A stretch of 64,000 nt of DNA from Thermoplasmata archaeon (GTDB lineage Archaea; Thermoplasmatota; Thermoplasmata; GCA-020350865). The notes beneath the pieces are model-generated. The model was not told the DNA's origin. It saw nothing but the letters and a program-made list of their open reading frames with translations, and made no database searches. Position 1 is the first letter of the stretch. Each line of letters starts with the position of its first letter. The stretch is taken from positions 597,003 through 661,002 of the forward strand of contig CP070751.1 in assembly GCA_020348445.1 (NCBI GenBank), in the 5' to 3' direction. The position numbers were made by a program, and so were the translations under genes. Positions 44,754-50,289 of the stretch are shown here, piece after piece.

Positions 44754-46124
44754 TTGGAGCAGGCAATTTTAGAAGAAGGGATAAAGTCTGGTGCTACATA
44801 TTGTGATGTGCGGATCGGGAATATTAAAGGTACATCCATTGAGGTTAAGGATGGCGATTTAAAGAAATCCTCCTCTGGAGAAGAGATGGGTGCGGGCATA
44901 AGGGTACTATACAAGGGTGTATGGGGTTTCTTCTCTACGAACGAGGTATCCAAAGAAAGTTTGAAAAAGGCACTTTATGATGCACTTGAGATGGCAAAAA
45001 GCGGAAGCAGGGTGGCCAAAGAAAGGGTCGAACTTTCCGAGGTAAAAGTCATCCAAAACAAAGTGGTTTGGAAGCCGAAAAATAATCCCCATGATGTACC
45101 GATTGCAGATAAATATAAAATATTGGCTGAGATGGACCGCACAATTCACAAAATCGAAGGCATCCATACTGTAACAACATCATACTCGGACAGCACAATA
45201 GGGACGCACTTCATCAGTTCTGAGGGTGCAGATATATATACCGAGATTACCAGGATCGTAACCCAGGTCAATCTGGTTGCAAGGGAAGGTGCAAAGGTCG
45301 TTGGCTACCGGGGTAGGATAGGGGGAACATGTGGTTTTGAGCTCTTCGATATGCACGATCCTGTGGAGAAAGGTGTTAAGCTTGGAGAATCAGCTGTAAG
45401 GGTTCTTAAAGCAAAGCGCTCTCCCTCTGGTAGGTATCCAGTTGTTGCGGATCATGATCTTACAGGTGTCTTTGTGCATGAAGCTCTCGGACATACAACA
45501 GAAGCTGATCTTGTCACTTCGGGGGATTCAATTCTTGAAGGCCAGATAGGTAATAAGATAGCCCAAGATAATATCACCATTGTAGACGACTCCACCATAG
45601 AACACGCATTCGGTTCATTTCCCTACGATGATGAAGGCACCAAAGGTGAGAGAAAGATTCTCATAAAAGATGGGGTGTTAAAAGGATATATCTTAAACAG
45701 GGAGACAGCGCATAAGCTGGGCATGCGAAGCAACGGCGGTGCAAGAGCAGAATCCTACGCCTCAAGACCTCTTGTAAGGATGAGCAACACCTTCATTGAG
45801 AAGGGAGATTATAGCTTCGAGGAAATACTAAAGGACATAGAATACGGTATCTACGCAAAAGGTACCCGCGGCGGGCAGGTTGATACAGCCAAAGGATCAT
45901 TTCAGTTCAGTGCCCAGGAGGCTTTTTTGATTGAGAAGGGAGAGGTAACCACCCCCCTAAAAGATGTGTCACTTTCTGGCAAGACCCTTCAAACCTTGAT
46001 GAACATAGATGCCGTGGGCAAGGACCTTGCTTTGGGTGATCCTGGTTTCTGCGGGAAGGGGCAACTTGTGCCTGTTGGTGATGGTGGCCCTCATATAAGG
46101 ATTAAGGAAGCAGTTGTGGGATGA
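44754..46124 (+). CDS. tldD: TldD family metalloprotease
   Basis: HEALGHTTEAD (HExxGH), YDDEG, RMSNTFI, RGGQVD, GFCGKGQLVPVGDGGPH. Confidence 0.92.
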   Translation: MEQAILEEGIKSGATYCDVRIGNIKGTSIEVKDGDLKKSSSGEEMGAGIRVLYKGVWGFFSTNEVSKESLKKALYDALEMAKSGSRVAKERVELSEVKVIQNKVVWKPKNNPHDVPIADKYKILAEMDRTIHKIEGIHTVTTSYSDSTIGTHFISSEGADIYTEITRIVTQVNLVAREGAKVVGYRGRIGGTCGFELFDMHDPVEKGVKLGESAVRVLKAKRSPSGRYPVVADHDLTGVFVHEALGHTTEADLVTSGDSILEGQIGNKIAQDNITIVDDSTIEHAFGSFPYDDEGTKGERKILIKDGVLKGYILNRETAHKLGMRSNGGARAESYASRPLVRMSNTFIEKGDYSFEEILKDIEYGIYAKGTRGGQVDTAKGSFQFSAQEAFLIEKGEVTTPLKDVSLSGKTLQTLMNIDAVGKDLALGDPGFCGKGQLVPVGDGGPHIRIKEAVVG

Positions 46125-46128
46125 GGAG

Positions 46129-47484
46129 ATGATGGATACAGCTAAAAAAATAGCGGATCGCGCCCTTGAATTTGGGGCAGACGAGGCCGAGGTTTTTATA
46201 ATCGAAAGTCATTGCCGAGGATTCACAATAGAGAAGAATTCCGTATCCTCCATATCTGGTGGGGTTGATAGAGGAATCGGTATCAGGATTTTAAAGGACA
46301 AGAAACTGGGATTTGCTTACTGCACAGAGGAGAAAGATAATGAAGAAGCCATAAAAAGAGCGTTATCCCTTTCCAAGCTCGGGAAGGAATCTGAGTTCAC
46401 TTTTCCTGAGCCTAAAGATATTAAAAAGATCCATAACTTGTTCGACCAAAGAATTGTTGAGTATCCCACGAAAGAGGCCCTGGAAGGGGCAGTTAATCTT
46501 GTGAAATCCGGACTCGAGGTGGATAAGGATGTTATTGTAACGAGAGGAGGCCTCAGTTACGGTTATGAAAGCTTTGTTGTCGTAAATTCAAAGGGTCTTG
46601 CTGTGGAGGATAAAGGTACAGAGATACATGCCGGTGTCAGCATGGTGCTAAAAAAAGATGGTATCTCCACAGGATTTGAGGATTATTCTTCGAGGATTCT
46701 TGAAATCGATTTCTGTGACTTGGGAAAAAAGTGTGCCGAACTTACAGTAAAAGGCCAGAACGCCAAAAAGATCGAGGACAAGAAGATGACAGTTGTTTTA
46801 ACACCACATGCCTTTGCCAACCTATTGGAGTTTATAACCGCCCCTGCACTTTTGGGCGAGGCAGCCCATAAAAACGAATCAGTATATTCTGGTAAAACGG
46901 GAGAGCAAGTGGCAAGCGAAAAGCTCACTGCAATCGATGACGGCTCCTTTGCTGGGGGGCTCAATTCCGCAATTGTGGATGATGAGGGAGTCCCTTCAAA
47001 AAGGACAGTTCTCATAGACAAGGGGATTTTACAGGGATTCTTGTATTCCCAGGGCAGCGCAATTGAATTCGACAAAGACACAACAGCCAATGCCATGAGA
47101 GCCGAGAGATTTGCCTCGGCAAGGAACTATAAATCACCGCCTGTGGTTAAAGCGAGAAACATCATCGTAGAGGGAGAATGCGAGAAAGTGGATGCCCTAA
47201 TTTCAGAGGTTGACGAGGGTGTTCTGGTGTACGAAGTTCTAGGTGCCCATACTTCCAATCCCGCAAGCGGGGATTTTTCAGTGGAAAGCCCAATACTGTT
47301 TAAGATCGAGCGCGGAGAGATCGTTCATCCCATAAAAAGCGCCATGCTCTCGGGGAACTTCCCAGAGTGTCTGAAGGATGTGCGGGGAATAGGTGACGAT
47401 CATAAATTGGTTTCAGGGGGTCTTACACCTGTAAGTTTCTCTATTCCCACCGTAAGCCTGGGTGGTATGAGGGTTACAGGTTGA
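46129..47484 (+). CDS. pmbA: PmbA/TldE family protein
   Basis: Follows tldD; DDEGVP, GAHTSNPASGDFS; lacks HExxH; start 46129/46132 behind GAGGAG. Confidence 0.9.
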   Translation: MMDTAKKIADRALEFGADEAEVFIIESHCRGFTIEKNSVSSISGGVDRGIGIRILKDKKLGFAYCTEEKDNEEAIKRALSLSKLGKESEFTFPEPKDIKKIHNLFDQRIVEYPTKEALEGAVNLVKSGLEVDKDVIVTRGGLSYGYESFVVVNSKGLAVEDKGTEIHAGVSMVLKKDGISTGFEDYSSRILEIDFCDLGKKCAELTVKGQNAKKIEDKKMTVVLTPHAFANLLEFITAPALLGEAAHKNESVYSGKTGEQVASEKLTAIDDGSFAGGLNSAIVDDEGVPSKRTVLIDKGILQGFLYSQGSAIEFDKDTTANAMRAERFASARNYKSPPVVKARNIIVEGECEKVDALISEVDEGVLVYEVLGAHTSNPASGDFSVESPILFKIERGEIVHPIKSAMLSGNFPECLKDVRGIGDDHKLVSGGLTPVSFSIPTVSLGGMRVTG

Positions 47485-47556: not shown

Positions 47557-47630
47557 GGGCCTATAGCTTAGACTGGTGGAGCGCCCGGCTGATAACCGGG
47601 AGGTCGAGAGTTCAAATCTCTCTAGGCCCA
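47557..47630 (+). tRNA. tRNA-Ile (anticodon GAT), no intron, CCA not encoded
   Basis: Acceptor GGGCCTA/TAGGCCC+A; D arm GCTT..GAGC; anticodon arm CCCGG-CTGATAA-CCGGG; T arm GAGAG-TTCAAAT-CTCTC. Confidence 0.97.
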
Positions 47631-47644
47631 CTTACCTTTTATAT

Positions 47645-47940
47645 TAAATTGATTCGTGGGCCTATTGATGTTCGAGTTATGCTAGAGATCGCTAAGTCTT
47701 AAGCTCGAACATCTCTAGGCCATAAATTAAGGATGGTGTTCTGAGCATCTCTAGGCCTCTGGTTATCAATTCAATCAAATTAATACGTGGGCCTATTGAC
47801 GCTCAGGTTATGCTAGAGGTTGCTATTTCTTAAACCTGAGCATCTCTAGGCCCACAAGAATTAAGAATGGTGTGCTGAGCATCTCTAGGCCCCCAAGAAT
47901 TAAGAATGGCGTGCTGAGCATCTCTAGGCCCTTGGTTATC
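47645..47940 (+). repeat. tRNA-associated repeat array: two acceptor-stem-capped hairpins plus short repeats ending in the tRNA 3'-end motif
   Basis: Hairpins 47658-47721 and 47789-47854 (131-bp period); ctgagcatctctaggcc(c) at 47741, 47836, 47875 and 47914, with a variant ending at 47721. Confidence 0.9.
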
Positions 47941-48033
47941 TAAAGACATGAATAAGCCCCCTCCGAAAAATATATAAAGGGGGAGCAGATATATAATAGG
48001 GACAGCCGAAAAAGCATAACAACACTACTTTCA

Positions 48034-48125
48034 GAGAGGCAGTGTGAGATAGCCTGCCAAACTGTTTAGGGGCGGAGCTACAAGGATTATCGAATATCTA
48101 TTCGAGTTGTTAAATCACTGCTCTC
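48034..48125 (+). ncRNA. Candidate structured cis-regulatory leader (three-way junction)
   Basis: P1 GAGAG(G)CAGTG/CACTGCTCTC encloses P2 (48050-58/48071-80) and P3 (TCGAAT/ATTCGA); pairing found by eye, family not recognised. Confidence 0.45.
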
Positions 48126-48142
48126 ATGTTGAGTACATAGGG

Positions 48143-48162
48143 TTTCTGATTTAAATCAGAAA
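48143..48162. promoter_or_regulatory. Perfect 20-bp palindrome (candidate operator or hairpin)
   Basis: TTTCTGATTTAAATCAGAAA equals its own reverse complement. Confidence 0.55.
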
Positions 48163-48191
48163 GCGAATTCGTGCTAAAAGGAGGTTAAAAT

Positions 48192-48380
48192 ATGTCAATA
48201 TTAGCTCCAGCAAAGATGAGGCTATGGATTGAACTGTGGAAGGAGGAAGTGATGGCCTCGATTCCAAAAGAAGAATTACAGCAAAAATTTCAAGGTAAGC
48301 AGATTAAAAAAGGACGAATGCCCACTAAGCCACCCGAGAAGATCCAAGCTAAACTCGAGGGAGGAGGCCAAGTTTTGTAG
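48192..48380 (+). CDS. Small Lys-rich ORF upstream of the KamA-family gene (possible leader peptide)
   Basis: Strong RBS AGGAGGT before ATG 48192; second RBS AGGAGG before ATG 48252; no recognisable family. Confidence 0.4.
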   Translation: MSILAPAKMRLWIELWKEEVMASIPKEELQQKFQGKQIKKGRMPTKPPEKIQAKLEGGGQVL

Positions 48381-48492: not shown

Positions 48493-50289
48493 ATGGTAAA
48501 TAGATGGCAAAATTGCTGGGATGCAAGTGCAGAGATATATACACTTTTAAAGGAAAGTGACACCGTTGACGGTGCAAGGGAGAAACTGATACACCAACTT
48601 GAAGCCTTGGAATGGTCGTATCGCAGGGACTTTGTGCAGATAAAGTCGTGGGATTACATTGTCCTGAAAGAGGCTGTTAGATGCTTCAAGAATATAATAT
48701 CACCCAGAAATGAGCGTCTGGCAGATACCTCCGCACTGGAACATTTATGGAAAGCAGCAGTTGAGGGCGACTCCGATGTGAGCGACGACTTCATTATCGA
48801 ATTCGAGCATTTATTCAAGGCGATAAAGGGTCATGCAGATATATATCCCTCAACACTTATGAACGGCATAGAGTACCCAGATTTCGAACAATACAAGGGC
48901 AGAGAAGCAGGGAAAATGCGTTCCGACTTCTTGGATATCATGGGTCAAGAAATGGAGAAGTTTATAAAGAGATATCCAAGTGGTTTAGATCCAGAGATTT
49001 TAAAGAAACGGGAAGAAAACAAAGAGCGTATTTTGGACCTTTTTTCCGCGACACAGGAGAACTGGGACGACTGGAAATGGCAGTTTAGGCATGTATTTAA
49101 AAAGAAAGATGATATAGAAAATTTAAAAAAAGTAATAAAATTGACAGAAGATGAAGAAACTGCCATGAAGCTTGCTTGCGAAAATGGAGTTCCTTTTGGA
49201 GTGACTCCCCACTATCTTCACCTAATGGATTTCGAACCCAATGGCAACGATTATGCGGTGAGGAGGCAGGTGTTTCCACCTTTAAGCTATGTAGAGAACA
49301 TGATAGCCCATAAAGAGGACAGGGAACACGCATTTGACTTCATGCGCGAGCATGACACCTCACCCTTAAATTTGATTACAAGACGCTATCCAAAAGTGGC
49401 CATAATAAAGCCCTATGACTCCTGCCCGCAGATTTGCGTTTACTGTCAGCGCAACTGGGAGATCACAGAACCACTTATGGATTCTGCAGAGGCTCCCAAG
49501 GGTTCACTTGATGATGCCCTGGATTGGTTTGCAGAGCACGAGCAAATGATGGATGTATTGGTCACTGGAGGAGATCCACTAGTCATGAACGATAATAAGG
49601 TGGAGTACATAGTGCGAAGATTGTCAGAAGAGCCCCATCTACGCAGCATAAGAATAGCCACCCGGATTCCCATCACAGTTCCCCAAAGAATTACCCTTGA
49701 GCTTTGCGAAATTTTCGGAAGTTACTATGAAGTTGGTAAACAAACGATCTGCATGGTTACACATTTTTCCCACCCCTACGAGATGACCATGGAAACAGCA
49801 GTGGCCATTCAAAGGATTAAGAAACAAGGAATACATGTGTACAATCAACATGTTTATTCCTTTGCAGGGAGCAGGCGCTTTGAGTCAGTTGCATTGAGAA
49901 TAGCAATGAAACAAATCGGAGTGGATCCTTACTACACATTCAACATGAAAGGTAAGACCGAGATCGAAGATTATGCCGTGCCTGTTGCTAGGGTATTACA
50001 GGAGCGAAAAGAAGAGGCGCGATTGTTACCAGGGGTGTTCCGCTCTGATGAACCTGTTTTCAATGTTCCATTTCTCGGAAAAAATCACCTTAGGGCCTGG
50101 CAGGACCATGAGCTGATATCTATACTGCCCGAAGGGGGGAGGGTATATTCGTTCCATCCATGGGAAAAGAACATCAACAGGGTTAAACCCTATCTTTATG
50201 TGGATGTTCCAATAAAAACATATTTAGAGAAATTAGAAAAGAGAGGGGAGAATCCCAGGGATTATAGAAGCATCTGGTATTATTACTAA
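48493..50289 (+). CDS. Long KamA-family radical SAM/PLP aminomutase, predicted glutamate 2,3-aminomutase type
   Basis: CPQICVYCQR (CxxxCxxC + Arg), VTGGDPL, IRIATR; PYYTFNMK and VFNVPFLGK segments; about 200-aa N-terminal extension. Confidence 0.85.
   Translation: MVNRWQNCWDASAEIYTLLKESDTVDGAREKLIHQLEALEWSYRRDFVQIKSWDYIVLKEAVRCFKNIISPRNERLADTSALEHLWKAAVEGDSDVSDDFIIEFEHLFKAIKGHADIYPSTLMNGIEYPDFEQYKGREAGKMRSDFLDIMGQEMEKFIKRYPSGLDPEILKKREENKERILDLFSATQENWDDWKWQFRHVFKKKDDIENLKKVIKLTEDEETAMKLACENGVPFGVTPHYLHLMDFEPNGNDYAVRRQVFPPLSYVENMIAHKEDREHAFDFMREHDTSPLNLITRRYPKVAIIKPYDSCPQICVYCQRNWEITEPLMDSAEAPKGSLDDALDWFAEHEQMMDVLVTGGDPLVMNDNKVEYIVRRLSEEPHLRSIRIATRIPITVPQRITLELCEIFGSYYEVGKQTICMVTHFSHPYEMTMETAVAIQRIKKQGIHVYNQHVYSFAGSRRFESVALRIAMKQIGVDPYYTFNMKGKTEIEDYAVPVARVLQERKEEARLLPGVFRSDEPVFNVPFLGKNHLRAWQDHELISILPEGGRVYSFHPWEKNINRVKPYLYVDVPIKTYLEKLEKRGENPRDYRSIWYYY

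Follow-up and report, generated by a model that had tools for sequence, protein, structure and literature searches.

Hairpin repeats bearing direct and inverted copies of the adjoining tRNA 3' end in a genus of Thermoplasmata

Introduction

The imperfect palindromes known as REPs (repetitive extragenic palindromes) and BIMEs (bacterial interspersed mosaic elements) are mobilised by RAYT transposases of the Y1 (HUH) type, and the IS200/IS605 family also gives rise to palindrome-associated elements. In IS608 a short guide beside the foot of the hairpin pairs with the cleavage or target site, and the same guide pairs with both the target in the flank and the element's own end. The subject of this report is an array of hairpins lying directly downstream of the tRNA-Ile(GAT) gene of a Thermoplasmata archaeon. 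The array was studied within a window of 64,000 nucleotides (nt), here the whole stretch of DNA analysed (G000:C1:597003-661002); G000, the genome to which the window belongs, was assembled from metagenome data as a scaffold of 5.16 Mb, in which there are 353 gaps, each exactly 100 N long.

Known small hairpin repeats, i.e. REPs, MITEs (miniature inverted-repeat transposable elements) and attC sites, have constant arms. In the family described here each copy bears both a direct and an inverted copy of the end of its own tRNA, with boundaries sharp to one base. We consider it probable, though well short of certain, that the array is made up of local members of a gene-less family of fold-back repeats, which works at the level of DNA and is situated at the 3' boundary of native tRNA genes.

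The repeat unit, termed the module below, resembles REPs and BIMEs in several respects. It is a short, gene-less, imperfect palindrome of intergenic DNA that is present in tens of copies per genome and is lineage-specific; its structure is kept while its sequence drifts, it occurs in tandem and composite arrangements, and it is probably handled as a folded single strand. REPs differ in having one constant sequence per family with a GTAG-type head, whereas the outer arms of the module are locus-specific and copy the neighbouring tRNA. Modules are also confined to tRNA 3' ends, no RAYT accompanies them, and the IS200 ends of G000 carry unrelated hairpins. The closest model for the 5' arm of the module is the guide of IS608.

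The hairpins of integron attC sites and of the CTX-phage attP(+) site share with the module an outer stem, a conserved unpaired spacer, an inner stem and a variable loop, as well as variable sequence on a conserved structure, strict orientation and head-to-tail arrays. One-strand exchange at such a site would leave a target copy, the insert, an inverted site, the loop and a hybrid site, which is the order seen here. The module has the attC shape (9-bp outer stem, T·C internal loop, 9-10-bp inner stem, 27-nt loop). It differs from attC in lacking the R-box consensus (GTTRRRY/RYYYAAC) and cassette open reading frames (ORFs), and its arms are tRNA-specific rather than constant for the family. Furthermore, attC sites need IntI, and no intact tyrosine recombinase was found in G000.

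A module family behind tRNA genes

A covariance model (R1) built from 22 units was run on the five genomes of one genus of uncultured Thermoplasmata, where it matched 60, 38, 27, 27 and 45 times, and on 56 further genomes of the class Thermoplasmata, where it matched nowhere; modules are absent from the related Thermoplasmata families. When the 330 nt behind each tRNA gene of G000 were read, the same module was found after the genes for Glu, Ala (three genes), Leu, Pro, Gln, Asp, Arg, Trp, His and others, and its outer arms matched the local tRNA at every module-bearing locus read. The exact module core was present in 15 metagenome contigs, a tRNA being detected next to it in 10, and in no viral contig. 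An earlier note on this DNA had raised the case that the array has no copies elsewhere; dozens stand behind other tRNAs, each with matching arms. No published description of this repeat family was found in a full-text literature search.

The anatomy of the module was measured on 143 units from the five genomes. Positions were counted on the 111 units with a tRNA called by ARAGORN within 900 nt, and arm and leader profiles were taken from 58 first units. Nearly all of the units counted (109/111) lay downstream of the tRNA and in its orientation, with the first loop beginning 44-52 nt past the tRNA end; the loop was forward in 105 and flipped in 4 (binomial p = 2e-26). Units were spaced 75-131 bp apart, with no ORFs between them.

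A module of approximately 95 nt consists of an AT-rich leader of about 24 nt, a 5' arm, a 27-nt loop and a 3' arm. The leader is 81% A+T (consensus TYWWATTTTWTWTTAATTWAATYC), and a run of at least four T residues was present in 45 of the 58, lying between the tRNA and the hairpin. The 5' arm is made up of the reverse complement of tRNA nt 74-64, the dinucleotide TT and an inner stem of 9-10 nt, while the 3' arm is made up of the inner stem followed by a direct copy of tRNA nt 61-72. The loop (consensus TTATAATTGAACATCAATTAGGTCTTAAG) has invariant ends (GTTAT...TCTTAAG). Two palindromes are thus contained in each locus: one formed by the last 11 nt of the tRNA, the leader and the 5' arm, the other by the two arms around the conserved loop.

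Identity of the 3' arm to the tRNA was at least 86% at positions 62-71, falling to 74% at 61, 76% at 72, 64% at 73 and 45% at 74. Complementarity of the 5' arm to the tRNA was at least 91% at positions 67-74 (0.91-0.97) and 72-79% at 64-66, and was at background at 75. Systematic mismatch of the 5' arm at tRNA positions 62-63 gives rise to a conserved T·C internal loop (153 cells).

The arms were compared with the tRNA at 24 sites where the acceptor stem has a G·U pair. In 20 of them the base in the 5' arm was the Watson-Crick complement of the 3' strand and in none was it the 5'-strand base, the other 4 agreeing with neither; the hairpin therefore does not wear the acceptor stem. The identity pair of tRNA-Ala, G3·U70, becomes A-U in the hairpin. 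The module holds an inverted copy of the gene's 3' end rather than an acceptor stem. The earlier note had each unit beginning with the tRNA 5' end and ending with its 3' end; the second half of this description stands, and the first does not, since family-wide the 5' arm is the reverse complement of the 3' end. It resembles the tRNA 5' end because acceptor stems are self-complementary. The proposal that the proximal unit of an array is the youngest was dropped, the polarity being inconsistent across arrays.

An inverted copy of the core motif within each loop had also been reported and taken as an alternative pairing. It is present in the tRNA-Ile array (8 nt in unit 1, 6 nt in unit 2) but is not a trait of the family, in which the complementarity of loops to their own arms was not raised (mean longest match 3.68 nt, versus 3.64 nt to the arms of other units). 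The idea of a designed alternative pairing was dropped on these figures.

A second subfamily of about a dozen copies was observed, with the same loop (TTATG...ATCTTAAG) and constant arms (CCCTTAGG/CCTAAGGG). Ahead of the hairpin come CGTGGCCTAT and then ATAGNCCAC, with 23 nt of AT spacer between them, and CTCCCACCC stands at the end. Examples are located at G000:C1 positions 70975, 395419, 2621051, 3219251, 3486799 and 4029795. Some copies lie 100-260 nt upstream of tRNA genes, and the first hairpin resembles a flipped arm of the tRNA-Ile type.

Pairing in DNA or in RNA

Both hairpins of the tRNA-Ile array folded far better than shuffled sequences, with z-scores of -5.1 and -8.0 on the plus strand and -5.9 and -7.5 on the minus strand; the two strands of the hairpin units fold equally well. 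The three compensatory pairs reported between unit 1 (GATGTTCGAG/CTCGAACATC) and unit 2 (GACGCTCAGG/CCTGAGCATC) are correct, and the unit 2 stem has one C·A mismatch in addition. In the larger alignment covariation was strong: over the inner stems of 130 units 93.5% of cells were paired, 10 of 11 pairs covaried, and double-change cells numbered 279, versus 65.7 (sd 13.7) in shuffles, with single-side intermediates rare. Selection on structure, as the earlier note put it, is borne out by this family-wide covariation, but the covariation does not point to RNA.

According to one rival explanation, which we regard as improbable, each module is a small RNA gene or a part of the tRNA precursor, either a mimic of the tRNA acceptor that RNase P/Z releases or a mini-gene in its own right. 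In the latter version transcription would start near the inner stem under the TATA-like octamer of the leader and would yield a stable hairpin, whose single-stranded 3' tail equals the last 12-14 nt of the tRNA and ends at the next T-run. Such RNAs would account for hairpins maintained by compensatory changes, for the fixed 105:4 orientation relative to the tRNA, for the invariant loop ends and for the retention of modules at orthologous loci of three species. In addition, octamers resembling TTTTATAT in the leaders precede the beginning of the inner stem by about 28-31 nt, a spacing equal to that between the TATA box and the mature 5' end in the genus's own tRNA promoters. The leaders are, however, without the A-rich element that is found just upstream of the TATA box in those native promoters.

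The composition of the stems also speaks against an RNA. A structured RNA tolerates G·U far above A·C, and this signature was not seen in the module stems, in which 2481 cells held 67 G·T and 76 A·C; in the tRNAs encoded by the same DNA, acceptor and T stems held 68 G·U and 13 A·C (Fisher p = 4e-8). An acceptor stem composed of the tRNA's own 5' and 3' strands, with its G·U identity pairs, is not reproduced in the units; Watson-Crick pairs replace the identity-bearing G·U, and the 5' arm never equals the tRNA 5' strand. The discriminator and nt 74 are base-paired inside the unit stem, and a 27-nt loop takes the place of the T-arm. No Rfam match was obtained for the hairpin units, and the tRNA model matched only the true tRNA even at E<=10. 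Some copies have the loop flipped with the arms kept. Bulge-helix-bulge splicing motifs were not found by eye, the internal loop being 2x2.

For the tRNA-mimic version in particular, the T-runs of the 45 leaders stand ahead of the hairpin, separating it from the tRNA. If transcription read through, the 3' end of tRNA-Ile itself is predicted to be paired by the 5' arm of unit 1, which would harm folding. The release of tRNA-mimic small RNAs by RNase P/Z, offered as one option in the earlier note, is not supported, given the lack of a tRNA-model match, the paired discriminator, the lack of a G·U excess and the equal folding of the strands.

Taken together, the missing wobble excess, the equal folding of the strands, the lack of an Rfam match, the predicted read-through mispairing and the T-run leaders argue that pairing is kept at the DNA level, as a hairpin or cruciform, and not as a tRNA-mimic RNA. 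As this family illustrates, compensatory change is by itself no proof of RNA structure.

The tRNA-Ile loci

The features of the array are listed in Table 1. All of the hairpin units, arms and repeats described behind tRNA-Ile in the earlier note are present in the sequence at the coordinates given there, including the 13-mer TCTCTAGGCCCAC common to unit 2 and the tRNA. The tRNA is of archaeal type, with nt 74 (C) encoded and the full CCA not encoded, and its last 11-14 nt are the template of the arms of the Ile modules. The array consists of two hairpin units 131 bp apart and three stubs comprising only a 3' arm behind a spacer of 19-21 nt; the stubs were unstructured on folding (z +0.69 for stub 1). 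Tandem Repeats Finder reported a period of 131 with 1.9 copies (82% matches) and a period of 39 with 2.5 copies (96% matches). The 3'-arm motif GAGCATCTCTAGGCC occurred 8 times at up to 3 mismatches versus 1.06 expected, a count reached in none of 100 shuffles.

Table 1. Coordinates of the tRNA-Ile(GAT) gene and of the downstream array in the window.
Feature	Position	Strand	Description
tRNA-Ile(GAT) gene	47557-47631	+	ARAGORN; Rfam RF00005, 70.7 bits
Leader 1	47632-47655	+	24-nt AT-rich spacer TTACCTTTTATATTAAATTGATTC with T4 run and TATA-like octamer; belongs to inserted module
Unit 1 hairpin	47656-47721	+	Inverted repeat I4; -30.8 kcal/mol, z -5.1; model R1 64.8 bits
Unit 1 5' arm	47656-47676	+	Reverse complement of tRNA 3' end, TT, inner stem
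Unit 1 loop	47677-47703	+	TTAT...TCTTAAG
Unit 1 3' arm	47704-47721	+	Inner stem, then direct tRNA-end copy stopping early at GGCC
Stub 1	47722-47757	+	19-nt spacer (47722-47740) and 3'-arm-only copy CTGAGCATCTCTAGGCC (47741-47757); direct-repeat family D1, exact motif match
Junction TCTGGTTATC and leader 2 AATTCAATCAAATTAATAC	47758-47786	+	Direct repeats D1, D2; 131-bp period
Unit 2 hairpin	47787-47855	+	Inverted repeat I2, 23-nt arms, 87% complementary; -37.3 kcal/mol, z -8.0; model R1 57.8 bits
Unit 2 5' arm	47787-47807	+	
Unit 2 loop	47808-47834	+	
Unit 2 3' arm	47835-47855	+	Ends in full TCTCTAGGCCCAC, common to tRNA-Ile
Stubs 2 and 3	47856-47931	+	Two tandem 39-bp spacer and 3'-arm copies; 3' arms 47875-47892 and 47914-47931
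Tail TTGGTTATC	47932-47940	+	Repeats the junction after stub 1; D1: 47893-47940 85% identical to 47720-47767

The array grew in G000 by local tandem duplication, first of a 131-bp block and then of a 39-bp piece containing spacer and arm, which agrees with the expansion proposed in the earlier note. The stubs are absent from the orthologous Ile loci of two related genomes (G003 and G004), and the spacer motif ATTAAGRATGGYGT was not found elsewhere in G000 or in the loci fetched. In this the array is like the rtT repeats at E. coli tyrT, which are tandem copies of a tRNA 3' end behind the gene, shifted in copy number by unequal exchange (compare the 131-bp and 39-bp duplications). The tyrT repeats differ in being a single-locus duplication without a hairpin core, an inverted copy or a genome-wide family tailored to tRNAs.

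Orthologous loci were recognised by the TldD/PmbA genes upstream and by a small ORF and a radical-SAM gene downstream. In the sister species G002, tRNA-Ile is directly followed by TTTTTTCATAAAAAAG and there is no module. In G003 there are two modules, and the last 3' arm is followed by TTTTTTCAAAAAATG, which is homologous to the G002 flank. G004 has a composite two-hairpin module built on the T-stem variant of its own tRNA (CTCCC) together with an older unit. Leader 1 of G000 has no homology to the flank at the empty site of G002. The boundaries of the inserted Ile array are exact, nt 74 on one side and the old T-rich flank on the other, and the empty site of G002 is either ancestral or a clean deletion between direct repeats.

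Loops of the GATGC type are common to the Ile units of three species and were not seen at other loci; because these features are restricted to the Ile locus, the units descend from one ancestral Ile unit. Nearest-neighbour comparison of 48-nt cores, applied to the choice between vertical descent and jumping, was noisy, the cores being short, consensus-drawn sequences and intron-bearing tRNAs being mislabelled by ARAGORN, and only the Ile lineage was clear. A native hairpin of tRNA end and inverted copy older than the modules was considered and rejected, as outgroup tRNA-Ile flanks have no inverted copy.

A second rival explanation holds that the modules are host cis-elements of tRNA genes, derived from repeats and then kept as a terminator or insulator, as a loop bound by a genus-specific protein or as a decoy tRNA end against integrating elements. 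Such a role is compatible with the placement of modules behind at least 24 tRNA loci of G000 and behind none of the 19 tRNAs of a foreign-looking tRNA array, with their genus-wide conservation, invariant loop ends and T-run-bearing leaders, and with the DNA-like symmetry of the stems, which would fit a cruciform or recognition by a protein. The number of copies per tRNA locus nevertheless varies from 0 to 6, with none at tRNA-Ile of G002, so that modules are dispensable; many copies are decayed, composite or truncated, the related families manage without them, and no candidate binding protein is known. We hold a host role to be unlikely.

The 19 tRNA genes without a hairpin module lie densely packed on one strand at G000:C1:4640570-4643566; several have odd introns, and an HNH-like ORF is located among them. 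The lack of modules suggests that this array is foreign (viral or mobile).

Search for an enzyme

No Cas1 was found in the five genomes of the genus. Tyrosine recombinase was represented in G000 by two gene fragments only and in the other four genomes by two to seven matches. The Y1 genes of the genus are of the IS200/IS605 type (NF033573, 76.8-127.9 bits), and no RAYT was found, the best REP_Tyr_transpos score being 17.8 bits against a cut-off of 80; identification of the repeats as REPs of a RAYT was given up on these scores. Derivation from IS200 ends was rejected too, the resident IS200 hairpins being unrelated to the module. No coding element with module ends, such as the parent of a MITE would be, was found; the inner stems are similar and covary, and the outer arms differ with each tRNA.

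The direct repeat of tRNA nt 61-72 after the hairpin could be a target-site duplication or the element's own end. Direct copies of a tRNA 3' end downstream of an intact gene are what attL/attR partial duplications and casposons leave, and the duplication of casposons (14-15 bp) is close in length to that of the module (12-14 nt). Plain partial copies of the tRNA end also stand at other tRNAs of G000, e.g. Thr-CGT and Gln-CTG. The modules could on these grounds be attL/attR-type scars of successive integrations and excisions by integrase-bearing elements at a tRNA hotspot. The duplicated stretch is, however, confined to those 12-14 nt, and between the copies lies about 80 nt of conserved non-coding hairpin with no cargo; in addition every case has the target copied in inverted form, and the same architecture recurs with fixed geometry at dozens of tRNAs. 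G000 contributes only its two tyrosine recombinase fragments and no Cas1. Scars of this kind are, in our estimation, a very remote explanation. A casposon (14-nt duplication at the tRNA end) was set aside for want of Cas1 in the genus, and the idea of a tyrosine integrase is weakened by the finding of fragments alone in G000.

The earlier note had offered, as its second option, hairpin DNA sites or MITE-like elements together with att scars at an integration hotspot. The former come close to the data; the latter are unsupported, because the insert is about 95 nt of non-coding DNA and G000 has no intact tyrosine recombinase. The family lacks defining features of tRNA-like RNAs, MITEs, REP/RAYT systems, IS200-derived repeats, attC sites (beyond their shape) and scars left by an integrase or casposon.

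Proposed mechanism

The best reading is that the modules behave as a DNA-level hairpin insertion element. Their orientation is fixed relative to the tRNA, and the point of insertion is defined to a single base. The steps set out below are offered as a tentative scheme that, taken on its own, we think rather unlikely. The module may be processed as folded single-stranded DNA by an enzyme that binds hairpins, either a transposase of the HUH/Y1 type or a recombinase of the attC type. As a guide, the 5' arm would pair with the 3' arm as well as with the tRNA end, which lies 24 nt upstream, and would set the cut exactly after nt 74. The 3' arm would re-create the target, giving head-to-tail units. 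The arms would be held matched to the tRNA end by hairpin-templated (quasi-palindrome) correction, and direct arm copies would promote slippage, leading to stubs and changes in copy number.

On this proposal guide pairing, together with the re-creation of the target by each unit, would explain why the cut falls after nt 74, why orientation is fixed and why arrays run head to tail. Matching arms at more than 20 different tRNAs would call for correction against the tRNA end, which is under selection. Quasi-palindrome correction fits the observation that the complement of 5' arm and tRNA is the best-kept relation of the module. Single-strand recombination of the attC/CTX type could by analogy give the same order of parts, but the integrase it involves is lacking in G000.

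Several findings weigh against an insertion element. No partner enzyme is linked to the modules. IS200-type transposase genes of the Y1 (HUH) class, a possible source of such an enzyme, were found in each of the genus's five genomes, but 11 of 36 module-free outgroup genomes have them too, so that their phyletic pattern is uninformative. The flanks of the two best-scoring IS200 copies and of a third Y1 locus carry GC-rich hairpins unlike the module, and nhmmer gave no module match near the Y1 loci of G000. To our knowledge no transposition mechanism makes an inverted copy of its target, and the correction step would have to be borrowed, by analogy, from quasi-palindrome mutagenesis as it is known. 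The empty site of G002 is fitted equally well by precise deletion between direct repeats, and the Ile units form a lineage of their own, hence there is no sign here of recent movement between loci. Retention of modules at orthologous loci whose flanking genes are only about 73% identical would suit a host function or an RNA also, as would the invariant loop ends, the fixed orientation and the conserved TATA-like leader.

More speculatively, the modules might be the footprint of an unrecognised, sequence-programmable DNA insertion with an 11-nt guide arm, insertion after nt 74 and arms rewritten from the target; we think this doubtful. If it were true, one element family could colonise every tRNA gene and break none. 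A set of hairpin mini-genes, each with a 3' tail copying the end of one tRNA, is a parallel possibility. Arms that copy their target imply that either some mechanism writes the target's sequence into the element or tRNA ends are recognised by a guide. In both cases mobile DNA would have a new way of using tRNA genes as safe harbours, and the principle of insertion might be a programmable one. For annotation the arms present a hazard, since they may be taken for tRNA mimics, att sites or fragments of tRNAs.

Neighbouring features

Two adjacent genes for 456-amino-acid metallopeptidases of the TldD/PmbA family (window 44754-47484) end just upstream of tRNA-Ile. In a further genome of the genus (G001) about 2 kb is inserted between the TldD/PmbA genes and tRNA-Ile, and the downstream genes are located elsewhere in the genome.

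Downstream of the array a non-coding block of about 180 nt (window 48015-48190) is conserved in four species of the genus. Its conserved stretches include GCAGTGTGAGATAGCCTGCC, GGGGCGGAGCTA and CACTGCTCT..GTTGAGTACATAGG; behind these come a hairpin and a Shine-Dalgarno sequence, and the block precedes an ORF of 62 amino acids (48192-48380) and one of 598 amino acids with a weak radical-SAM match (48493-50289). The block had no Rfam match, and no compensatory pair was present among the four sequences. It could be the leader or regulatory RNA of a peptide-modification cluster.

In the 70 nt upstream of tRNA-Ala, tRNA-Leu, tRNA-Glu and tRNA-Trp of G000 and its relatives, conserved 5' flanks were observed in which the tRNA 5' end is copied, directly or in inverted form, beside small hairpins (e.g. 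CTTGGCTACCCTC in front of Leu and GGCCGGTAGA in front of Ala); tRNA-Ile is without such a 5' module. Bacterial-type tRNAs with an encoded CCA lie beside integrase fragments on the G000 scaffold (1864225-1864591 and 2412539-2412823), which suggests that it includes some contamination or integrated foreign DNA.

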